Assembly: GCA_963699255.1 (NCBI GenBank) | Contig: OY969425.1 | Location: 1,050,001 to 1,082,000, forward strand | Source: an uncultured bacterium | GTDB taxonomy: Bacteria; Margulisbacteria; WOR-1; CAVSGV01 | DNA: 32,000 nucleotides | Direction of reading: 5' to 3' | In this document: positions 3,124-16,800 of the stretch, one piece after another | Numbering within the stretch: the first letter of the stretch is position 1 | Layout of the letters: each line of letters starts with the position of its first letter | Program-made: the position numbers and the translations under genes | The notes under the pieces: generated by a model | Database searches by the model: none | What the model was told of the DNA's origin: nothing | Seen by the model: only the letters and a program-made list of their open reading frames with translations

Positions 3124-3963
3124 TTTTCTCTTTATCAGCATCACCTGGTATGTGAGATACTTCCTGAAAACATCCCTCTGGAGTGGCACAAGATTATTGA
3201 CGATTATCTGCTTTAACGTTTTCCCCTTGACCCTGAATTTGAAGAATAGGTTCAGCATCCAGTAAACTGGCGGAAGATGGACCTGCAAAGTGGTAAGGAT
3301 ACAGCTTAAGACCGGCCTTATGTAATTCAAATACACATCGGTGCCGTAGTCAAGGGTGGGAAGGATGTTATCTGTGATATCCTGTTTTTTCACGACCTTG
3401 AATCCCGCTTTTTCAACTGCTTTGAGATAGTCCGTGAGACCGGCGGAAGGGAGATTTGGTACGTTCTTCGCGCTTACCTTCTTGAAATAATCGGACACGA
3501 GAAGGTATCCTGTAGGCCGCAGCAGCTGTGATATCTTTTTTAACGCTTCCCCGAAAGGTATGTATTGGACCGACTCGCTCATGATTATCAGGTCGAACTT
3601 CTGGCCGGTGTCGTATTTTTCCAGCGTGGTCAGCTTAAAACCGGCTTTGCCTTTTGTGTTCTTCCTGAAAAGCTGCCCCTGGTAAGGATCGGGACATATA
3701 CCCGTTACCTGATATCCAAGGTTTAATAACTTTGCCGCATTGCCGCCCACCCCGCAGCCGACATCGAGGACCGTGCTTACTCCCTTTGGAATGGACGCGA
3801 TCAGATTATTAAGGTATCTTTCCTGAGCGGCCTGGAAATTCTCAAGGGTGAGCTTGTCCCCTTTCTTCCAGAGACCGAAGTGAAGGTAATTTGTCTTTGC
3901 CAGGTCGAGGTAAAGCTTAAGAACCGGCTGAACCCGAACTTTAGTTTTTTCGATTTCTTCCAT
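3121..3963 (-). CDS. Class I SAM-dependent methyltransferase (substrate unknown)
   Basis: Motif I VLDVGCGVGGNA; the N-terminal YLHFGLW element resembles small-molecule/lipid methyltransferases; post-I acidic residue and the LIIMSESVQYI motif. 280-aa ORF with no competing ORF. Confidence 0.85.
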   Translation of the reverse strand: MEEIEKTKVRVQPVLKLYLDLAKTNYLHFGLWKKGDKLTLENFQAAQERYLNNLIASIPKGVSTVLDVGCGVGGNAAKLLNLGYQVTGICPDPYQGQLFRKNTKGKAGFKLTTLEKYDTGQKFDLIIMSESVQYIPFGEALKKISQLLRPTGYLLVSDYFKKVSAKNVPNLPSAGLTDYLKAVEKAGFKVVKKQDITDNILPTLDYGTDVYLNYIRPVLSCILTTLQVHLPPVYWMLNLFFKFRVKGKTLKQIIVNNLVPLQRDVFRKYLTYQVMLIKRK

Positions 3964-4017
3964 AAAAAAATAGCCCTACTCTGTTCGATTCCAGTTAAGA
4001 TATCTCTACCTTAATTT

Positions 4018-4064
4018 GTCATTTGGCATTGGTCATTTGACATTACCCCGACCAAAGGTCGGGG
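4018..4064. repeat. Tandem 13-nt repeat followed by a perfect 8-bp hairpin
   Basis: GTCATTTGGCATT (4018-4030) and GTCATTTGACATT (4032-4044), then CCCCGACC-aaa-GGTCGGGG (4046-4064). No T-run follows on either strand, so it is not a canonical terminator. Confidence 0.6.
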
Positions 4065-4166
4065 TTAATAGCGCAACCTTCTTCAGGTCGAACTGTTAGC
4101 ATTATTCTACCTAATACAATTCACGGGTGCAAGAAGCTGAATTTGCGGCGTTCAGAATGATCTCCC

Positions 4167-4201
4167 GATACTGTGACTTAGCCGGGGAACTTCACAGTAT
4201 C
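4167..4201. repeat. Perfect 10-bp inverted repeat carrying the TCACAGTATC motif
   Basis: GATACTGTGA (4167-4176), a 15-nt spacer, then TCACAGTATC (4192-4201). The same core recurs three times at 5441-5492. Confidence 0.8.
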
Positions 4202-4498
4202 CCTCTATATACGATACGCGTACACAGGCACATACGCACGAGCGCAGGCGCGCGGCCAGACCGGCCAAATTGGGATTTTATTTGTTACTTCGGTACACAA
4301 GGATATTCATTTTAACAGTTGATACATAGATGTTGTTCATTAGCAGTAGAGAAAGACAAAGGATCAATGATGTTAGATATGAATACGAACAAAAGACAGA
4401 AGAACCTGACCCAAAGAGTTTTAGACACGCTGGGAGTTTGAAACTATTGCTGCAAAACCTACTCCTTCAAGACCTCGACTGAGCTTGGTCGGAGTCCT

Positions 4499-4548
4499 CG
4501 GCTTACGGCTTCGCTTTCTCCAGAGGCGAACAGGCGGGACAAGTAAAC
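4499..4548. repeat. Paralogous segment S0 of the non-coding region
   Basis: CGGCTTACGGCTTCG...AGAGGCGAACAGGCGGGACAAGT shares the TTAC-G-TCG, AGAGG-G-ACAGGCG and ACAAGT blocks with S1 and S2. It is the most diverged copy. Confidence 0.5.
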
Positions 4549-4620
4549 TCATCGCCCCGATGCTCCGGTTGATGCAAGCTACCCCCTGTGGTGTGGTAAG
4601 CAAGTTCATTATCCCGATAC

Positions 4621-4695
4621 TTCCGCCAGCCATACAGCTCGTAGAGAGGCGGACAGGCCGATCTCGTCAAAGGTGGGTAGGCAGAACAAGCTACC
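4621..4695. repeat. Paralogous segment S1 of the non-coding region
   Basis: TTCCGCCAGCCATACAGCTCGTAGAGAGGCGGACAGGC... is identical to S2 at 34 of the first 38 positions. It ends ...GGCAGAACAAGCTACC. Confidence 0.75.
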
Positions 4696-4892
4696 GCCTG
4701 CGGCGGGGCAGGCTGGCAGGGAGCTACCGGCTTTGAAAAAGAACAGTGAGCATTTCCCACTACTGAAAACGGGGCAAGGCGATTATCCATGCTATTTCAC
4801 GTTGGCTGAAATGTAACATTTGTTTTGCTTCATTCTCAGACTCAGATTGAGACAGTTACACAATTAACAATGACATCCGCTTTTGCCGAGGC

Positions 4893-4973
4893 TTCCGCCA
4901 GCCTTACAGTTCGTAAAGAGGGGGACAGGCGATGACTCCCGACGTAAAGCCTGCCTGTCGGCAGACAAGTCGG
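4893..4973. repeat. Paralogous segment S2 of the non-coding region
   Basis: TTCCGCCAGCCTTACAGTTCGTAAAGAGGGGGACAGGC... is identical to S1 at 34 of the first 38 positions. It ends ...GGCAGACAAGTCGG. Confidence 0.75.
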
Positions 4974-5430
4974 AATCCCGCACATATTTTACATTTCAAC
5001 AGTAAGGCAGCGGAACAATGAATGGTTATCAGGCCAAAGACAAGCAGGCAAAAAAAGCAGCTTCAGCTGATCGCTTTCTATCAAGACCCGCCTACACCAA
5101 GACTTATACCATCATACCAGCCAGAGGCAATCCCTACAAAGGCAGGCAAGCAGGGAGCAGGTTTCATCGTGTGTTTTCGCTTGGACCATTTGACCTAGTT
5201 TCCCCATGCTTTGCTAAAGATGTCCTTGGTTGTCAGCAATTCATCGCTAACTACAAGAACTGTTGACTTTGTCTTCATTTCAAGCCAGCTGTATCTGCCT
5301 GCGTCGTCTTTTTTGTGTTCGTGCTTGGAGAGGCGCGGAAATGATTTGTTTTGAATGGGATAAGGCTGGGGCCCCACCTGTCCAGACACAAAAAACGAGT
5401 GAAAACTGATGAAATCCCAAGGACAAAAAC

Positions 5431-5494
5431 AAGCGGTTACTTCACAGTATCTAGGGGGGTATTTCACAGTATCAAGCGGTTAGTTCACAGTAAA
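5431..5494 (+). promoter_or_regulatory. Three tandem 21-22-bp operator-like repeats with TTCACAGTA cores
   Basis: AAGCGGTTACTTCACAGTATC (5431-5451), TAGGGGGGTATTTCACAGTATC (5452-5473), AAGCGGTTAGTTCACAGTAAA (5474-5494). Cores lie at 5441, 5463 and 5484, spaced 22 and 21 bp (two helical turns). The array directly abuts the -35 hexamer. Confidence 0.7.
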
Positions 5495-5523
5495 TTGACT
5501 TTTTCACTATTACGGGGCATAAT
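5495..5523 (+). promoter_or_regulatory. Sigma-70-type promoter of the four-gene operon
   Basis: TTGACT (5495-5500), 17-nt spacer, CATAAT (5518-5523). The A of ATG 5530 lies 7 nt after the -10 hexamer, which predicts a leaderless transcript. Confidence 0.6.
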
Positions 5524-5529
5524 TTGATC

Positions 5530-6999
5530 ATGGTACAGGAGCTTGAATATTTAACCTTAAATGAAATAAAAGCTTTTCTTAATGCCATCAACGACACCCG
5601 TGACCGGGCACTAATAATCCTATTCCTTAATACGGGCCTTTTCTTAACCGAGGTAACTTCCCTGAAAGTTGATTCGATCGACTGGAAGAAAAAGATACTT
5701 TCCGTCCCCGGCAACCGGAAAAGGACCATCCCGCTGAACGACCAGGTTTTTGAGGCGTTAGCCAAGTGGTCGAAGGAGCGTCCGGCAGGTAAAATTCCTG
5801 ATCTTTTTGTAACTACAAAAGGCGCGCTGAAAGACCTCACAAGTCGCGGCGTAGATTATCTGATAAGAAAGTACGCAGAACAAGCCGGCATAAAGAAGCG
5901 GGTCAATCCGCAAATACTTCGCAACACATTCGCTGTCCGGCTATTCTCGGAAGAACCCTCCATCGAAAAAGCTTCCGCCATTTTGGGCATATCCGACCCG
6001 GAATCGATAAATCGTTATATACAGGCCTCTAAAAGACCGCCGGCCAAGGTGGAGATAACCGAGAAGCTTGAGCATATCGACACCCGCCACCCCGTCGTTA
6101 AAGCTGTTTCAAAGTTATTCCCTACTAAGCCGAAGATCGTAAAGCCCACGACCGCAATAAAAGGCCCCATAACTCCCAGTCCCGAAGAAGTGATCTTCGG
6201 AAGGGATAATGTGATCGCCGACATAAAAGCTGATATCGCCAAAAGTCAGCCAGTTCTGTTGACTGGCCCGCTTGGAATAGGCAAAACTCATTTATTGATA
6301 CATATGTCAAAGGTCCTCGGTCCCAATACATTATATATATCTGCGCCCAATCCGCTTAAAACCGCTCTGATGCAAATACTCGTAAAACTTGATCCTGAAT
6401 GGCAGAAAAAGCTCAACACCAGAGCTTCAACGAAAGAGATAACCGACTATATTGTGAAAATTAAAGGCGCGAAGCCACCAGTTTTGTTGATCGATAATTT
6501 GAACAATATAAAAATCTCCGATATCGACCCTATTTTGACCTTGCTGAATAACTTTCCCATACTCGCCGCCGCCGATGAAGTAAAACCGAAGCTGAAGCAG
6601 GTCTGGTGGCAGCTTAAACAGGTCCCTCTCCCGCCGTTAAATGAAGATGCCTCGAAAGAACTTATCAAATATCTTACACAGAACCTTACTATTAGCGATT
6701 ATGAAATGCTTGAAACAAGGGTACTGACCCTATCAAACGGCCTTCCTCTTGCCATTGTCGATATGATCCATCAGATAAGCCATATCCCGATGGTTTCAAA
6801 AGATGTTATCCGTGATGTTTATCATGAAGCCGGAATACACTATCGCGACTGGACGACGGTTATAATCTTCATTTACTGGATAGCTGTCATTTTTAGATTT
6901 GTTGCGCTTGGAACAAAAAGCTATGAAGCCTATTTCCTTGCCGGTTTCGGCGTGACGTTATTGATGATTTTAAGAAATGTCATGTCGATGTTGAAGTGA
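5530..6999 (+). CDS. Tyrosine-recombinase-fold domain (degenerate active site) fused to a P-loop NTPase with a C-terminal membrane anchor
   Basis: The N-terminal ~175 aa resembles the XerC/D catalytic domain (RDRALIILFLNTGLFLTEV, ILRNTFAVRLF, LGISDPESINRYI), but with the first Arg as Phe and both His residues replaced. It also has FGRD...LLTGPLGIGKTHLL (Walker A), VLLIDNLN (Walker B-like) and two C-terminal hydrophobic helices. The track start at 5524 is a TTG that directly abuts the -10 hexamer, so ATG 5530 is preferred. Confidence 0.8.
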   Translation: MVQELEYLTLNEIKAFLNAINDTRDRALIILFLNTGLFLTEVTSLKVDSIDWKKKILSVPGNRKRTIPLNDQVFEALAKWSKERPAGKIPDLFVTTKGALKDLTSRGVDYLIRKYAEQAGIKKRVNPQILRNTFAVRLFSEEPSIEKASAILGISDPESINRYIQASKRPPAKVEITEKLEHIDTRHPVVKAVSKLFPTKPKIVKPTTAIKGPITPSPEEVIFGRDNVIADIKADIAKSQPVLLTGPLGIGKTHLLIHMSKVLGPNTLYISAPNPLKTALMQILVKLDPEWQKKLNTRASTKEITDYIVKIKGAKPPVLLIDNLNNIKISDIDPILTLLNNFPILAAADEVKPKLKQVWWQLKQVPLPPLNEDASKELIKYLTQNLTISDYEMLETRVLTLSNGLPLAIVDMIHQISHIPMVSKDVIRDVYHEAGIHYRDWTTVIIFIYWIAVIFRFVALGTKSYEAYFLAGFGVTLLMILRNVMSMLK

Positions 7000-7005
7000 A
7001 TATTT

Positions 7006-8439
7006 ATGTATAGATTTAGAAACATAAAACATTTATTAGATGATGGTGAGCTGGAAAATCAAGAGATATACTTCTCGGATATTTCTGCGCTAAATGATCC
7101 GATTGAAGGCTATAGGGAAATATGCTGGAAAGGAGATAGTATCCTTTGGAAAAACCTTATTAAGCATTATCTTCTATGCCTTGAAAATGTGATAGTGCTT
7201 ACCATGCTTTCAGAAGATCAGGTTAAGTTTAGCCAACAAGACATACCGGTATTTATGAGCACTGAAAAATTGCCAACTGAATTATATAAAAATATGTTCC
7301 AGGAAATATGCAATGAGGTTCTTAATAATGAGGGCATTATAAAGTACACGGAATATCTATCATCTCGCCTAGATGGCGTCAACCATGACGAATTGTTTAT
7401 TCACCTTAAAATGATACATATGATAGCCTGCGAGGCTATTATTAAAATACATGCGGCGCATAGTTTGCAACTTGCCTCAAACAAACCATCCACAAATCAT
7501 TCCGACAGTCTTACTAAATTGTTAACAGCTTTAGAGGAATTACAATCTGGCAAAGAAGAACACATTAATAGCTTGACGCTATTCTCTATGATGAAGCAAT
7601 TCATGAGAGATAATGACATTCTCAGTTCACGCAAATCAATGGGCAAAGGGGATAACAACAAACAATGCTTCATTAAATTTGAATTTCCAGCTGCTTATAT
7701 AGAACAGATTGAATCATTAACTTATCCCAATCTATATGTGGCATGCTTTACGGAGGATTGCACAAATCCTGTTACTTGGAGTCATTATGGGGATAGCCAC
7801 AAGGGCGTTGCCCTTCAATTCAAGCCTCAGCTTATCGAAAATGAACCATGTATTAATCTTTATGGGATCACGGGTGTTTGGGGAAACGGGAAAAATAGCT
7901 ACAGTAAACGTAAATACCCTTTTAAAAAGGTGACATATTCAAATGAATTCCCCAAAATTAATTTTTTTACTTCTCTCGGACAATTAACTGTTCCGCAAGC
8001 CTTGTCTCAATGGTATACAGATGTTGACGGCAAACAGAGCACCTATGCAAGTGACATATTTAATAAGCAAGACGAATGGCGACATGAATATTGGGCGAAA
8101 TTTGAAAAAAGCGTTTTAACTAAACTTAATGACTGGGAGAAAGAAGTGGAGTTTAGATTGATATTGCCCGAAATACTTGGTCTTCATACTGATATAAACG
8201 CTCGGAAATTTAAATACGATTTTAATGACTTAGGTGGCATTGTTTTTGGCATTAAAACACCATTAGAAACTAAATCGAGAATAATAGATATTATCGAGGA
8301 AAAATGCAAAAAAATTGATCGTAAAGACTTTGAATATTATCAAGCTCAGTATGATGAATCAGCTGGTAAAATCAATATTATTAGGATGAGCATAAACCAA
8401 ACGAGGTCGAATAAAGACAATGTTAGCACCAACACATAG
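7006..8439 (+). CDS. DUF2971-family protein
   Basis: The N-terminus MYRFRNIKHLL...EIYFSDISALNDPIEGY matches the DUF2971 signature as I recall it (YkYr...l.fs....fNDPfE). 477 aa, AT-rich, and 6 nt downstream of the preceding stop codon. Confidence 0.7.
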   Translation: MYRFRNIKHLLDDGELENQEIYFSDISALNDPIEGYREICWKGDSILWKNLIKHYLLCLENVIVLTMLSEDQVKFSQQDIPVFMSTEKLPTELYKNMFQEICNEVLNNEGIIKYTEYLSSRLDGVNHDELFIHLKMIHMIACEAIIKIHAAHSLQLASNKPSTNHSDSLTKLLTALEELQSGKEEHINSLTLFSMMKQFMRDNDILSSRKSMGKGDNNKQCFIKFEFPAAYIEQIESLTYPNLYVACFTEDCTNPVTWSHYGDSHKGVALQFKPQLIENEPCINLYGITGVWGNGKNSYSKRKYPFKKVTYSNEFPKINFFTSLGQLTVPQALSQWYTDVDGKQSTYASDIFNKQDEWRHEYWAKFEKSVLTKLNDWEKEVEFRLILPEILGLHTDINARKFKYDFNDLGGIVFGIKTPLETKSRIIDIIEEKCKKIDRKDFEYYQAQYDESAGKINIIRMSINQTRSNKDNVSTNT

Positions 8440-9805
8440 CGTCTTTGGCATCTTTTTAACGCTGATATTCCTGGCAGTGTTCGGGATACAATGGGGTCTT
8501 CATTGGACGATAATTCTGTTCGCGATCATCGGAGCAATAACGCCCGACATCGACCACCCCCGCTCCGTCATAGGCAAGCTTTTTCCGTATATCTCCATTC
8601 CCCTTGAGCGCAAATATGGCCATCGAACGATAACCCATTCATTCATCGGCTGGGCTATCTTCACCGCAATTTTCGCTTTAATTGTCTTGTTTGTAGCTTT
8701 GATCTTTGGATTCATTTTTAAGTTTGACGCTTGGATTTGGGAATTAGCGCCAAGATGGACAGCCGCGTTCTCCATCTCCTACTTTTCCCACCTGGTGCTT
8801 GATATGTTTAACCGCCGCGGCAGCCAGATGTTCTGGCCGGACCCCAGCAGAGATGTTATCCCAAAAAACCCGAAGTTCAGGCCTGAATCGGGATCAAGCG
8901 GGGAGCTTTTGATCTTCTTTATTCTCTTCGTGCTGATGCTCTTTGCTTTTCCGATTTCCAAATACGGGATAGCAAGCTCGCTCCGCTGGCTAATGGCTAC
9001 TCCCGGATCAGCCATCAAGGAGTTTCAGTCCCTCAAGACCCATTCCTATGTTGAATTTAAGGGTTACTTCACGGAAACAAATGAGCCGGTCGAAGGGATA
9101 GGCGAAATTCTCGATGTCCAAAGTTCTCGACTGGTAATATTATATAAACCTGGCCTGAGTGAAGCCGTGATGGTAAAAGGAGTCGAAGGAGGGCTTGCCC
9201 GCCGAAGCCTTAGCGAAGGCGGGAAGATTTACACTTTAAGCGATGAGCTGGCTGCCGATATATCCGCTTCACATGTCCGGCTGAAAAGAACAAATACCCC
9301 TATAAAAGTCACAAAGAAGGAATTCGAAAATGAGAGCCGTGATGCTCTGCTTGCGCAGATACCCGCTGGCGCGCTTGTTTCGGGAACGGTTAAGCTCCCG
9401 GAAGGAATGGGCCTTCAGTTCCCTGCCTACGCCGGCTCTTATAAACCCTTGAGCCAGAAAAGTGGCGATCTTATTCTCTCTTACGCCTCAAAAGACCAGA
9501 TTGCAAAGCTTGCCCTGACAGAAACTTTTAATCTGCAAAAAAGGAAGGACAAGGCCGACCTCGCACAGCTATACGCTCAAGCGGATAAGCTTAAAAGCCA
9601 GATAGCAGAAGCGGAAACCGGCAACGGTCTTACACCTTTAGGCAAAGAGCTTATGATGAACAAAGATGAGATCAAAAAGCAAAAAGCCCAGCTCGCCGAT
9701 TTGAACGGCCAGCTTGAGGAAATAAATGTTAAAATAGAGGAACTTCAGCTGAAGATAAAGGCCAGAAAGTTCGCATTCTCAGGAGAAGTCTATTTAAGAC
9801 AATAA
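8420..9805 (+). CDS. DUF457/YdjM-like membrane-bound metal-dependent hydrolase fold with a C-terminal soluble coiled-coil extension
   Basis: MLAPTHSVFG..., ITPDIDHPRS and HRTITHSF are the YdjM-type His/Asp motifs, set among 5-6 hydrophobic helices. The C-terminal ~260 aa is soluble and ends in a heptad-rich segment (ADLAQLYAQADKLKSQIAEAE...LEEINVKIEELQLKIKARK). It overlaps the upstream gene by 20 nt. Confidence 0.75.
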   Translation: MLAPTHSVFGIFLTLIFLAVFGIQWGLHWTIILFAIIGAITPDIDHPRSVIGKLFPYISIPLERKYGHRTITHSFIGWAIFTAIFALIVLFVALIFGFIFKFDAWIWELAPRWTAAFSISYFSHLVLDMFNRRGSQMFWPDPSRDVIPKNPKFRPESGSSGELLIFFILFVLMLFAFPISKYGIASSLRWLMATPGSAIKEFQSLKTHSYVEFKGYFTETNEPVEGIGEILDVQSSRLVILYKPGLSEAVMVKGVEGGLARRSLSEGGKIYTLSDELAADISASHVRLKRTNTPIKVTKKEFENESRDALLAQIPAGALVSGTVKLPEGMGLQFPAYAGSYKPLSQKSGDLILSYASKDQIAKLALTETFNLQKRKDKADLAQLYAQADKLKSQIAEAETGNGLTPLGKELMMNKDEIKKQKAQLADLNGQLEEINVKIEELQLKIKARKFAFSGEVYLRQ

Positions 9806-9816
9806 GGAGGCTTGAT

Positions 9817-10347
9817 ATGAAGAAATTTGTTGTCTATCTTATTATTGCGAGTTTATTGTCTCCGCTGATTGCTTCTCTTGCTTATGCTTATGAATACACT
9901 CTCGCCACGAATGATCTCCTTGAAGTCAAAATCCTTAATCAGAAGGATATGGACACAAAACAGACTATTACGCCTGATGGCACTATTGCGCTCCCATTCC
10001 TCGGAAGGGTCCAGGCTCAGGGCAAAACGCTCAATGAATTTCAGACCTATTTGACGGCCGAATTCGCCAAGTATGTGGATAAGCCTCAGCTTGTTGTCTA
10101 TCTAACCCCAAGATCGATATATGTAGTTCAGCACGATCTCAAGAAAAATACCTGGGAAGTCAAGGAAGCTAAGTCCATTCCCGAAGCTAAAGCATTCGCT
10201 GGCGAGGATTATACTAAAGAGATCAAATATGGCGATGTTATAACCGTTGATGTCGGACTTCAACCTGACTGGTGGGAAAATAACTGGTATAAAGTGCTCA
10301 CTGGAACAGCTGTTGCAGTTGGAATATACGAAACGCTGAAAAAGTAA
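9817..10347 (+). CDS. Secreted Wza-like protein (Poly_export domain plus possible SLBB)
   Basis: AAGGAGG Shine-Dalgarno 6 nt upstream. Signal peptide MKKFVVYLIIASLLSPLIASLAYA. The Poly_export pattern is YTLATNDLLEVKI...ITPDGTIALPFLGRVQAQGKTLNEFQTYLTAEFAKYVDKPQLVVYL. Confidence 0.8.
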   Translation: MKKFVVYLIIASLLSPLIASLAYAYEYTLATNDLLEVKILNQKDMDTKQTITPDGTIALPFLGRVQAQGKTLNEFQTYLTAEFAKYVDKPQLVVYLTPRSIYVVQHDLKKNTWEVKEAKSIPEAKAFAGEDYTKEIKYGDVITVDVGLQPDWWENNWYKVLTGTAVAVGIYETLKK

Positions 10348-13272: not shown

Positions 13273-13716
13273 TTAAAGAATTTCAACGATTTCACTTTTC
13301 CATAACAATTGAACAAGCGAAAAAGCATCTACATTATTGTTAAATCTATTTTGCCTAATCATCGTAAATTCTTTATCTTTCTTAAATCTTGGAATCAATT
13401 TAATGCCCCACCATGAGGGGATCATTTTTTTTGCTGACTTTAAATGCGCCTCATTCAATACAAGGGTAACAGTGTCCATAACCTTGTTATACACGACTAT
13501 TTGTGAGGGCAATCTTGCTAGCGTATCAAAGTCACTCTTTATTTCATATCCGTGCATATACCCATTAACTGCAGCTATATCAATCCTTGCCCCACCCTGG
13601 CACAATTCAAATTCCTCAATAATAGTGGTATTTTTCTCGGGTTTTAGCGTTGCCTCATGCTTGTAAAGGAGTTTTCTTATGTCTGCATCATACAAAGGAC
13701 TATACGACCTGGACAT
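13273..13716 (-). CDS. PD-(D/E)xK-fold nuclease-like protein (sce7726/MmcB-like)
   Basis: EFELCQGGARIDIAAVNGYMHGYEIKSDFD provides an E...D...ExK arrangement. 147 aa, convergent with the Beta-protein gene. The sce7725/sce7726 pairing is recalled from NCBI family names and is not verified here. Confidence 0.55.
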   Translation of the reverse strand: MSRSYSPLYDADIRKLLYKHEATLKPEKNTTIIEEFELCQGGARIDIAAVNGYMHGYEIKSDFDTLARLPSQIVVYNKVMDTVTLVLNEAHLKSAKKMIPSWWGIKLIPRFKKDKEFTMIRQNRFNNNVDAFSLVQLLWKSEIVEIL

Positions 13717-13803
13717 ATATAGGCCCCCCCTTTTTTTAACTGTGTGAAATTATACGCTTTTAAATTATTGATGCAAGGTAAGAAGATTGGTAAGCTGTGA
13801 TAA

Positions 13804-13836
13804 GAGGCACTTACGTCTCTTCCCAGTAAGTGCCTC
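13804..13836 (-). terminator. Hairpin downstream of the R-M gene
   Basis: Perfect 11-bp stem GAGGCACTTAC (13804-13814) / GTAAGTGCCTC (13826-13836) with an 11-nt loop, 18 nt past the stop of the minus-strand gene. On the minus strand it is followed by TTAT, a weak U-tract. Confidence 0.5.
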
Positions 13837-13853
13837 AACCTTAACACGACAGT

Positions 13854-16800
13854 TCATTTTCCAAGAAAATCAATCTCATCGATCTCTTTCATAATTTTAT
13901 CCGTTTCTGTCAGAGCAACAACAATCTTCTGATAATGCTCAATGTCTTCATTAGATAGCTTGCGCCCTTTTCGGTCCTTGAGCCATTTTTGCGCAGGCTG
14001 GTAGCCGCCAATATAGAAGTTCCACGCAATTTCCGGTACTTTACCAAAGTATTGTGTCGCATTTATAAATACCTTGCTGTCTTTATAGGTTAGCTTATCA
14101 ACAGTATCCGACCCCTCAACAGGGAAGGTTGTAATATATTTTTCTACTTTAGGTGATTCGAGCAGATGCAATCCACGCAATTCTGCGCCGAGCTTTACCA
14201 GCCCATTGAATGTCTTTGCGTCTTTCGGATAAGGCACTCGTGGAAAATCAATCTTTAAGAATTCCTTATACTTTTCGCGGTAACTTGGTGAATGTAAAAC
14301 CGCGTATATATAATCAAAAATATCTTCGGGGTTACTCTTCTTGACGATCCGTTCTATTGCATCGACAATAACCTTGCTAGTATTTGCTACTCGTCTCGCA
14401 TCATCAGCACAAAGATATAGCGGAAACACTGTATCAATACTTACACTGTCTGAACGTATATATCCATTAACTAAAGGCCCGTTTGCAATAAAATAATATG
14501 AAGAAGGCATATTAGCAGGAGAACGATTTACTGTTACCAAACCGATATTCCTCACAATTAAATGTCGCATAACTTCTTTCCTCATTCGCTCAATAAAATC
14601 TTTATGATAATATACAAAGCGAGTGTCAAATGGTCTATAACATATTGAGACAGTGTTGTTACTATTAAAGTCATGCTTCAGAGCCTCTGCGATCTTCCAT
14701 CCCGCATTCTCCTTTAATGAGTATTTTGACTTTGCCTCTTGTGGCGATTGGCAACAAAGAAAATTCTTAACTCTTTTTTCCAGTGTCTCTCTGTCAAAAT
14801 CAACAATAAAATCATCGCGCGAAGTTACAACCCCAACACTTGACACAGGAAATAATTCGGCAACAGAGAATCCTTTTCCATACTGCTCCCTGATTGCCTC
14901 ATTACGGGCTATCCATTCATAATTCGGCTCAATCGGGCATACAGTTTTCCATCCCACAGAATCAATTGAATGTGAGTCTAAATACTTAAACTTATCTGAA
15001 CGTGAGCCATAACAGTCAGCATGAAATATTTTTGCTTGATTATTCTTGCTATTCTTCTTTTTTAACCCAACAAATATAGAAACTCCAGTTTTAATATCAA
15101 AAACATTCTTATCGTCAGCCCCTTTAGGTGTTTTCTCTTGTTTATTTGCGTTGCCATGAAGATCAAGCACATATATCTCATCAAATGTTTTCATAAGACG
15201 GAATCGCATACCGCGAAAAGTAGGATTGTCAATGTAGCCGTGCGCTGTGATCATTGCCACTATGCCTTCTCCGGTTTTTTCGATCATACTTTCAGCATAC
15301 CTAATAAATTTTACATAATCATCATTCAGCCATTTTGAATTTCGCTCCTGCAATCTTCCACCTGTCGGTTCAACCTTATATACATCATTACCTGTATACG
15401 AAGCGTTACTTGATTCGCCTGAATAAGGTGGATTACCAATTACCACCATTATTGGTGTCTCATTTTTGATTTTGCTTGCTTCTTTTGCTTCTTCAGCAAT
15501 GCTTTCGGCCAAACCAAAAGAAAGCATGTCCTGTTGCACCTCGGTTTGTTCAAGAGAATTTGTCAAATAAATGCCTAATCTATTGTTAAATATCTTAAAC
15601 CCTGTCTTTTTGAATGCCATGCTTAATTTGAGATGCGCGATAGTATATGGCGTCATCATAATTTCGAACCCATGAAGACGCGGTAAAAGGTCATTGTGAA
15701 CATATGTTGTCCATCTTCCCTTTTGCCCCTGTTCGATCAATCTTTTATAGATTGTGTCAATAGTCGCGCTTATAAATGTGCCGGTTCCAACCGCTGGATC
15801 CAGGATTTGAACACGATGTTTTCCATTTGACAGCTTTGAAGAATCAGCAAGACCATTTGGAAGGCCAAACTCTTTTTGCAGAATGTAGTCTACCGAACGT
15901 ACAATAAAGTTTACTACCGGCAGCGGGGTATAATACGCCCCCATTTTCTTGCGAAGCTCTGGGTCATATTCTTTAAGAAAATCTTCATAAAAATGAATAA
16001 CGGGGTCCGGGCTCGCATGTTCTTGGCCGCCAATATCAATTTTGAAGTATTGACTCATCAGCTGTTGAACGTTCGCATGCAGAAAGACGATACAAAGTTC
16101 ATCAACAATATATTTTAAACGATCATCGTAGTCAGCTCCGGCAATATGATCAAAAAAGTGACGAAGGAAAGGGTTGGATGCCGGAACCAGATCCCTGGCT
16201 TCCTGACGGGAGAATGTATCCGGAGTTTCATCGTTATAACGAGCGACAAATAGCCCATAAACAAGTGTTTGCGCGTACATATCCGCAAAAGTATCTACGG
16301 TCAGGTCATGCACAAGTAATTTTTTTATTGTTTCATATACCCGCAATAGTCCCGCATTTTTCTTTGAATCTCTATCCGAAGAGAGATAGTGCCTAATATT
16401 ATCCCTTATTCTTTGCGCCTTTCCCCCCATGATCTTTGCAAGGTGCTCTCCTGATTTGATCGGCTCTTTTTGAGATTGCGTAAAGTCAACAAGGGTTTTC
16501 GCGACTTGTTCATAATTCTCCGGTAAAGGAGAGATAGTGCGGTTCTCTTTGTCAAAGCTTGCTATTTTGATCGGCTCTTCATAAGAAACCCCATTCCTGT
16601 AAAACCTAAATTCCAAATAATCCGTCAGCACCAAATTCGTATAGCCATAATACCTTGCCATTTGTTCGGATTTCTCAACCTTATCAAGCGAGATCCCAAT
16701 ATCTTTTGTTTCAATATAGAGGATAGGAACACTATTATTGATCACGACAAAATCCGGCTTATTCCCTTCTGCAGCCCTTTCATCGTGACCGATGCGTTGA

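Follow-up and report, generated by a model that had tools for sequence, protein, structure and literature searches.

A phased repeat array and a matching palindrome as candidate binding sites of a degenerate recombinase-fold AAA+ ATPase in a large serine recombinase island

Results

Three phased repeats run into the promoter of int-AAA

The 32,000-nucleotide stretch analysed here (the window; positions 1,050,001 to 1,082,000 of contig OY969425.1, assembly GCA_963699255.1, from an uncultured WOR-1 bacterium of the Margulisbacteria) contains one end of a 42.7-kb island that a large serine recombinase (LSR) has integrated at the 3' end of tRNA-Glu(TTC). Close to this end lies the gene for a protein that we term int-AAA, in which a tyrosine-recombinase fold with a degenerate active site is joined to an AAA+ ATPase module. 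Three direct repeats precede the gene and run directly into its promoter, and the same motif is reused as a palindrome within the island end. The features that carry the argument are as follows, where the five sequences are those of the alignment described below.

5434-5451, plus strand: array unit 1, CGGTTAC-TTCACAGTATC, core centre at about -84 from the inferred transcription start, core invariant in the five sequences
5456-5473, plus strand: array unit 2, GGGGTAT-TTCACAGTATC, core centre at about -62, 10 of 11 core columns invariant
5477-5494, plus strand: array unit 3, CGGTTAG-TTCACAGTAAA, core centre at about -41, abutting the -35 hexamer
5495-5523, plus strand: sigma-70-type promoter TTGACT-17-CATAAT, hexamers invariant and promoter spacer variable across the five sequences
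5530-6999, plus strand: int-AAA, 489 aa, with a Xer-like catalytic fold that has a degenerate active site (aa 7-168), an AAA+ ATPase module (aa ~220-400) and a two-helix membrane hairpin (aa ~442-488)
4167-4201, no strand assigned: palindrome GATACTGTGA-N15-TCACAGTATC, the array core in two inverted copies whose starts are 25 bp apart
4069-5360, no strand assigned: left-hand arm of an inverted repeat of 1,292 bp without mismatches; its outer edge is the left end of the island

A preliminary description of this DNA had noted three tandem units with cores at 5441, 5463 and 5484 that run into TTGACT-17-CATAAT, as well as a perfect inverted repeat at 4167-4201, and both are confirmed in the sequence. 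On the plus strand, TTCACAGTA occupies 5441-5449, 5463-5471 and 5484-5492, with spacings of 22 and 21 bp, and the full repeated unit, GGnTAn-TTCACAGTATC, extends over ~18 bp and thus exceeds the 9-mer that was first noticed. Since the 43 bp correspond to ~4.1 helical turns, the units are located on one face of the DNA. The promoter is the top sigma-70 match within 3900-5700 (10 of 12 positions), and the ATG of int-AAA at 5530 is found 7 nt past the -10 hexamer, from the position of which the transcription start was derived; the int-AAA mRNA is probably leaderless. A TATAAT-like hexamer 6 nt before the ATG recurs upstream of int-AAA homologues at L023, L025, L029, L033, L040 and L041, such that leaderless expression looks conserved across the gene family.

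The arms of the palindrome are perfect over 10 bp and flank an asymmetric spacer of 15 bp. Exact TTCACAGTA is present in 16 copies on both strands of the 1.77-Mb genome, with 15.4 expected from composition, yet a genome-wide search, as proposed in the preliminary description, finds that the motif is not scattered: nine of the 16 copies sit in two islands that total ~3.6% of the genome, namely the island of the window (e1) and a second island (e2; genome 868564-887045). Inverted pairs with the 25-bp start-to-start spacing number exactly four in the genome, one in each repeat arm of the two islands. This local clustering is not due to chance and goes far beyond it. The intergenic region between the XRE gene and the LSR gene of the island has zero copies of the motif.

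The motif co-varies with int-AAA

The same palindromes and the same three repeats are observed in e2, where they lie ahead of a 90%-identical int-AAA paralogue. In an alignment of five sequences with a mean identity of 84% (e1 and e2 of the genome studied, G000; one metagenome contig; and the related genomes G082 and G083), the cores of all three units and both promoter hexamers are invariant, whereas spacer 1 and the promoter spacer vary freely. More distantly, a phased triple of 22 + 21 bp (21 + 22 bp in L042) outperforms shuffled sequences in seven lineages (p <= 0.015), in each case upstream of the homologous gene or operon and with protein identities from 100% down to ~37%. The repeats are thus conserved with the same phased architecture upstream of orthologous operons, as the preliminary description had suggested should be looked for.

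The array cores differ from lineage to lineage, being TTCACAGTATC, TTCGCCATATC, TTCCGCAATATC, TCGCnnCAnA, GTAGCAATA (in two lineages) and TCACTACAnC, and in the lineages compared the lineage-specific core of the array is always found again in the end-proximal site or palindrome. The core shared by G000, G082 and G083 is TCACAGTATC, and the palindrome is kept in G082 and G083, although one palindrome arm is altered in G082, where the array cores are the same. L012 has a palindrome of identical 25-bp geometry, ATGTTGCGGA-N15-CCGCAACATC, and an array core that matches CCGCAACATC, while a single site is located at the palindrome position in G129 and G132 (shared core ATCGCAACATC) and in G040 (shared core GTAGCAATA). 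The palindrome and array share their core in every lineage, and therefore one binder would read both. Three genomes, compared here with G000, are informative as to which protein this might be.

G145 (L012): int-AAA 62%, LSR 71% and XRE 78% identical; motif different
G083: int-AAA ~85% and LSR 57% identical, no XRE homologue near the LSR (best 35%, on another contig); motif identical
G082: int-AAA 91% identical, LSR 57% identical and elsewhere in the genome, no close XRE homologue; array cores the same, one palindrome arm altered

In these comparisons the motif follows the identity of int-AAA and not that of the LSR or the XRE protein.

int-AAA retains a recombinase fold with a degenerate active site

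The domain architecture of int-AAA was established from Pfam, sequence alignment to PDB entries, family alignments, an AlphaFold model and Foldseek. The match to the Phage_integrase catalytic domain begins as early as residue 7, with no domain ahead of it, and the protein contains neither an arm-binding nor a core-binding domain. Relative to XerA and XerD, the catalytic positions correspond to F38 (Arg-I), R63 (β-hairpin Lys), Q128 (His-II), R131 (Arg-II), I154 (His/Trp-III) and Y163, such that four of the six are substituted, whereas R131 (invariant) and Y163 (at least 90%) are retained. Across the clade, Arg-I is replaced by F, T, Y or M and His-III by I, L, V or F, His-II is variable, and Arg mostly stands in for the β-hairpin Lys (three members that were checked have C, A or a gap). 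In contrast, R-x-H-R-H-Y is kept in 46 of 70 full-length relatives checked, mostly remote ones of 22-30% identity, while Arg-I is never R among 59 close homologues, nor in the close clade in a search of 1.84 billion representatives. The retention of the motif in remote relatives together with its absence from the close clade argues that the int-AAA clade descends from intact recombinase-ATPase fusions, and the clade has probably lost catalysis. Basic residues of the fold nevertheless persist, with R24, R84 and R131 being invariant and R63, R65, K97, R106 and K114 near-invariant. The AAA+ module contains a Walker A motif, GxxGxGKT, and a Walker B motif that reads hhhhDN rather than DE/DD in most family members, and by Foldseek its fold resembles clamp-loader and RuvB types generically and not DnaA or Orc specifically. 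The C-terminal helical hairpin is hydrophobic in sequence.

More than 170 homologues were found with a patchy distribution: the family is present in 29 of 146 searched genomes of the phylum, often at contig ends, and its named hosts are Margulisbacteria, WOR-1, Saganbacteria and some Patescibacteria. PADLOC and NCBIfam contain no family for int-AAA above threshold, and no description of the protein family or of the site array was found in the literature searched. A reading of the operon as a recombinase-in-trio, or three tandem recombinases, was rejected, as the fold is present in the first ORF (open reading frame) only. Using an active-site-intact query (P0164), we also identified a remote relative at L057 (Flavobacteriaceae metagenome-assembled genome JAUMXI010000032), with direct and inverted ATCTTACCTA repeats upstream (5500-5680) and a 464-aa ORF downstream. 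Repeat arrays may predate the loss of catalysis.

The palindrome lies just inside the attachment-site end of the island

In the three relatives G082, G085 and G086 the attachment site is empty, and the methyltransferase flank (to window position ~4069) directly adjoins tRNA-Glu; the island therefore measures ~42.7 kb. The LSR ORF is complete and terminates inside the antisense tRNA-Glu(TTC), and the other island junction is 4069/4070, which is both the left edge of the left arm and the crossover. The palindrome and the array are located 98 bp and ~1.37 kb, respectively, from this crossover, and neither resembles the P/P' half-sites. The preliminary description had considered the repeats as possible relict ends of an element, which is not supported, as the palindrome is 98 bp inside the true left end, the LSR ORF is complete and empty sites exist in three relatives. 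An interpretation of the repeats as LSR attachment sites was likewise discarded, since they are not within ~25 bp of the crossover and differ from the P/P' sequences.

The segment adjoining the crossover is as follows.

4070-4160, plus strand: P' half of the island attachment site, which mimics the tRNA 3' end and encodes an alternative C-terminal tail of the LSR (A, then QPSSGRTVSIILPNTIHGCKKLNLRRSE), with the stop TGA at 4158-4160

This tail is in frame with the LSR and would join the LSR gene in the excised state only, and the same tail is conserved in L012 and in e2. The LSR gene thus crosses its own attachment site, such that its last ~10-28 residues differ between the integrated and the excised state (4070-4160; in L009, 12716-13006 on the minus strand and 13325-14767 on the plus strand). 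The palindrome begins 6 nt past the tail stop codon, and the same layout of tail and then palindrome is observed in e2 at tRNA-Gln (5 nt after the stop) and in L012, a WOR-1 locus, at tRNA-Glu(CTC) (7 nt); in G129 and G132 the single site follows the tail stop directly (by eye). A putative outward promoter in this segment, TTGCAC-17-TAGAAT (minus strand, 4132-4104), seemingly conserved in four lineages, was dismissed: the block encodes the LSR tail (..ILPNTIHGCK..), and its conservation is due to this coding sequence.

In a third island, e3, which has an LSR and no int-AAA, the tail stop is immediately followed by a hairpin (stem of 15 bp, loop of 15 nt; genome 1101218-1101262). This hairpin occupies the position of the int-AAA-type palindrome of e1, e2 and L012, and its arms are not reused elsewhere. 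On the other side of the junction, the tRNA-trailer flank just left of the island contains a short repeat, ccttaatttgtcatttggcattggtcatttgacatt (4009-4044), that recurs at genome 1041707-1041742 and 1101060-1101187, one of these being the left end of e3.

Long inverted arms enclose most of the island

According to the preliminary description, the palindrome and the array bracket an ORF-free region. Indeed, the DNA between them contains no convincing genes, but it is part of the left arm (4069-5360) of the 1,292-bp inverted repeat. By blastn of the window against its own genome assembly, the partner arm is inverted, 100% identical and located at genome 1093516-1094807 (~43516-44807 in window numbering, outside the window). 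The two arms enclose ~38 kb of the 42.7-kb island, whereas the XRE gene and the LSR gene are found immediately beyond the far arm. At its outer edge, the far arm continues into an inverted copy of the LSR 3' segment, and together they form an intact inverted spare attachment site, which lies 5' of the XRE/LSR cassette.

The arms of e2 are 914 bp long and 99.2% identical to each other, and only the outer ~365 bp of the arms are common to e1 and e2 (80%), the inner parts being unrelated. The homogenisation of the arms inside each island (100% in e1, 99.2% in e2) suggests concerted evolution. Long inverted arms are also present in the relatives G129 (586 bp, 85%), G132 (623 bp, 92%), G083 (926 bp, 94%), G082 (641 bp, 93%) and G040 (at least 254 bp, 97%), while no inverted repeat is found in L012. 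The arms are not classical transposon ends, a possibility that we rejected because their outer edges differ between islands and each mimics another tRNA end (Glu, Gln, Arg).

Further features of the arm and of the operon are as follows.

4202-4262, no strand assigned: conserved CCCTCTATATA box, then a GC-rich tract of alternating purines and pyrimidines, from an alignment of six repeat arms
7006-8439: DUF2971/PDC-S31-like gene, located between int-AAA and the YdjM-like gene and seen as an insertion only in this island
8420-10347, plus strand: conserved operon partners of int-AAA, of which 8420-9805 encodes a long YdjM-like membrane protein and 9817-10347 a Poly_export-domain protein

The GC-rich tract that follows the CCCTCTATATA box spans 4212-4262 and appears Z-DNA-prone by eye; in L040, L041 and L012 the first site is followed by similar tracts, and CCCTATATA boxes, analogous to the CCCTCTATATA box, come after the site in L012, G129 and G132. 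Within the conserved outer part of the arm, 4350-4441 contains a conserved AAGGA-N5-ATG and an ORF of ~24 codons (MMLDMNTNKRQKNLTQRVLDTLGV and a stop). This element recurs in e2, is cut short in G083 and differs in G082, and might serve as a micro-ORF or a leader. The inner arm (4575-4930) has GC-rich direct repeats, one of 50 nt at 4609/4881 (84% identical) and one of 27 nt at 4575/4687, while the corresponding part of e2 contains tandem repeats of ~73 bp that are unrelated to them. Rfam gives no match at gathering score anywhere in the window, the inner arm included.

In addition to int-AAA, the DUF2971/PDC-S31-like gene and the YdjM-like and Poly_export-like partners, the enclosed segment encodes a PD-Lambda-2-like cassette, a Type ISP restriction enzyme, a two-component system, a surface protein of ~3,500 aa, outer-membrane proteins and a DprA-like gene. 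The DUF2971 gene is missing from e2, which, like the relatives, carries other small genes at that place; by this comparison, 7006-8439 is a variable position inside a conserved operon. Among the scanned island ORFs, several of which have no match at all, Pfam identifies no helicase, primase or polymerase domain and no TnsA/B/C or DDE transposase.

Discussion

A model for site recognition by int-AAA

The array and the palindrome, the conservation and co-variation of the sites and the anatomy of the island are direct observations, from which we infer int-AAA as the binder, as well as the regulatory outcome and the bridging described here. We consider it fairly probable that both are binding sites of int-AAA that control its leaderless promoter and tie int-AAA to the island end, rather than recombination or arm-type sites. 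In this model, approximately three int-AAA protomers would sit head-to-tail on one face of the DNA at about -84, -62 and -41, and the bound protein would set the expression of the operon. Further protomers would occupy the inverted site pair just past the end of the recombinase tail-coding sequence, one pair per arm. Oligomerisation of, or contacts between, the AAA+ modules would provide cooperativity and could bridge the inverted pair to the promoter array; consistent with this, a Walker A/B AAA+ module is of the kind that assembles head-to-tail. The protein would act while anchored in the membrane, with an N-terminal tyrosine-recombinase fold devoid of recombination chemistry fused to the AAA+ ATPase.

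The preliminary description had proposed autoregulation by the adjacent recombinase-fold protein through arm-type-like sites. The conserved cis-element tied to int-AAA upholds the regulatory part of this proposal, but the arm-type part is not supported, given the lack of an arm- or core-binding domain, the use of one motif for the array and the palindrome and the degenerate active site. Looping, which had also been put forward, may occur, but the relevant geometry would be that of the island end, the spare attachment site and the promoter, and not just a loop over non-coding DNA.

Several observations weigh against int-AAA as the regulator of its own promoter. The YdjM-like and Poly_export-like partners co-vary with the motif as int-AAA does and, by comparison alone, could still be the binders, although Pfam identifies no DNA-binding domain in the two proteins. 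As to the direction of control, the near-consensus promoter fits repression whereas the positions -41, -62 and -84 fit activation. The L012 array lies ahead of the first operon gene, with int-AAA in third place, so that the apparent autoregulation amounts to control of the operon. A membrane anchor at the C terminus is also atypical of transcription factors. Lastly, int-AAA of G083 is a pseudogene next to intact sites, which may reflect recent decay.

Alternative explanations for the sites

An alternative that we regard as unlikely is that the sites form an iteron-like origin or a centromere-like site of the excised circular island, with int-AAA as an AAA+ initiator or membrane tether and promoter control as a by-product. 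Direct repeats together with an inverted pair of the same motif are the classic logic of iterons or Rep operators, and ~18-bp direct repeats at 21-22-bp spacing, a hallmark of that class, are conserved here in seven lineages, with the motif reused as an inverted pair. That the gene next door encodes an AAA+ ATPase also fits, a circle excised by the LSR would have to be maintained, and the membrane anchor suits tethering or segregation. An A-rich block is also located immediately upstream of the array and a 31%-GC block ~100 bp beyond the palindrome, but both are modest and there are zero DnaA boxes in 4000-5600. Moreover, the array is placed exactly on a promoter, no replication domain was identified by Pfam in the scanned ORFs (several being without any match), the Walker B motif of most members is hhhhDN instead of DE/DD, and the AAA+ fold is generically of the clamp-loader/RuvB type rather than specifically that of DnaA or Orc. 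Less probable again is that the sites are operators of another regulator, such as the XRE repressor, a small HTH (helix-turn-helix) protein of the island or a host factor, and that int-AAA is merely regulated. The arrangement of three phased operators beside a promoter is reminiscent of phage immunity regions, an XRE gene lies beside the LSR gene and small Sigma70_r4 HTH genes occur in some related islands. Yet these small genes are not universal, the XRE promoter region is without the motif, the units are non-palindromic, unlike typical operators of HTH dimers, and the motif is independent of XRE and LSR identity, being identical in G083, which has no XRE homologue near its LSR.

Both remaining alternatives concern the palindrome and appear highly improbable to us. 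If the palindromes were FLP/FRT-like crossover sites for inversion of the ~38-kb segment and the direct repeats were accessory sites, one would expect the observed inverted site pair in each arm, as in the 2-micron plasmid (here the palindrome is ~100 bp from the outer edge), and arms that are homogenised within an island (100% in e1, 99.2% in e2) and differ between islands; Tyr163 and Arg131 are also retained, and remote relatives have intact active sites. This is difficult to reconcile with an active site that is degenerate throughout the clade (Arg-I and His-III lost, the β-hairpin Lys mostly Arg, His-II variable), with a spacer of 15 bp instead of 6-8 bp, with the single site in G129 and G132, with the lack of an inverted repeat in L012 and with G129 arms that are merely 85% identical. 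Furthermore, int-AAA is opposite the LSR end in e1, G129, G132 and G083, which, with four assemblies, is weak evidence against inversion. There is as little to recommend the palindrome as only an RNA-level terminator hairpin of the LSR gene in the excised state, unrelated to the array: it does start 6 nt past the LSR tail stop, and e3, without int-AAA, has its 15-bp-stem hairpin at the equivalent place, but the hairpin is weak (-14.1 kcal/mol, z = -0.67), lacks a U tract and is absent from the terminator scan. In addition, two independent motif lineages have palindrome arms that match the array core exactly, G129, G132 and G040 have a single non-hairpin site at this place, and the e3 arms do not recur elsewhere. 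Termination and binding by int-AAA are, however, not mutually exclusive.

Comparison with known systems

The closest functional analogy for int-AAA is TnsF, which selects targets sequence-specifically in the Tn7-like Tn6022 by means of an inactivated tyrosine-recombinase domain, within a machinery that includes the AAA+ protein TnsC (Faure et al. 2023, PMC10293859). In both cases a tyrosine-recombinase domain that has lost catalysis appears to be kept as a sequence-specific DNA-binding or DNA-bending module alongside an AAA+ ATPase, although the likeness is one of function only and DNA binding by int-AAA is a prediction. The dead domain of int-AAA differs in being fused to the AAA+ module and a membrane hairpin, and int-AAA starts directly with the catalytic fold, without N-terminal zinc fingers and without TnsA, TnsB or TnsC among the scanned ORFs (Pfam). 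The sites, moreover, reside in the element itself, at the promoter and the end, rather than in a host target gene, and the mover is the LSR.

Theta plasmids such as R6K, P1 and pPS10 have iterons and Rep operators with ~17-22-bp direct repeats at ~22-bp phasing, a reused inverted pair and an autoregulated binder encoded adjacently. The tandem repeats with ~22-bp phasing, the inverted reuse of the motif and the proposed binder next door are similar here. Theta plasmids have their inverted pair across the rep promoter and use the direct repeats as origin, with a winged-helix Rep as the binder, whereas here the direct repeats lie on the promoter, the inverted pair is 0.65-1.25 kb away, DnaA boxes are lacking and the proposed binder has a recombinase fold and an AAA+ module. 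Direct repeats near an element end beside a gene with a tyrosine-recombinase fold are also reminiscent of lambda Int. The lambda Int core site has inverted arms around a 6-8-bp overlap, and its arm sites are of another sequence; int-AAA has no arm- or core-binding domain, a single 10-11-bp motif serves both array and palindrome, 15 bp separate the palindrome arms and four of the six catalytic positions are substituted.

Identical long arms, each with inverted elements for a recombinase-fold protein, are shared with the FLP/FRT system of the yeast 2-micron plasmid (599-bp inverted repeats), but int-AAA is probably not catalytic, the repeat is the duplicated attachment-site region of an LSR island and the second orientation was not seen in four assemblies with an adjacent LSR. 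The island itself, 42.7 kb at a tRNA-Glu 3' end with a terminal LSR and empty sites in relatives, is similar to textbook LSR islands at tRNA genes (phiC31, Bxb1 and A118 types), from which it differs in having the palindrome and the array 98 bp and ~1.37 kb from the crossover, with sequences unlike P/P'. Remote intact proteins that combine a tyrosine recombinase, an AAA+ module and a transmembrane segment, presumably among them that of L057, share the three-part architecture, the long downstream partner gene and short direct or inverted repeats upstream, and differ in keeping R-x-H-R-H-Y, which is lost in the int-AAA clade. Judged from these comparisons, the array would be a phased binding-site array or operator of a known kind, but one for an undescribed pseudo-recombinase ATPase that heads LSR islands.

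Implications for LSR islands

A defined ~18-bp site, a 22 + 21-bp array and natural specificity variants, in which int-AAA and its site have changed together, provide a cheap entry to a large undescribed family. If int-AAA binds as predicted, it would join TnsF as a second example of a tyrosine-recombinase fold that persists as a DNA reader once catalysis has been lost, and this proposed reader is placed at the attachment-site end of tRNA-targeting LSR islands that carry defence genes. More tentatively, and with rather low confidence, int-AAA and the array might be the core of an undescribed maintenance or control module of LSR islands, in which int-AAA would polymerise on the array and bridge to the sites after the LSR tail, thereby coupling the integration state (integrated, excised, spare attachment site) to expression, tethering or replication. 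Were int-AAA indeed to sense or control the state of the island, this would represent a new layer of mobile-element regulation.

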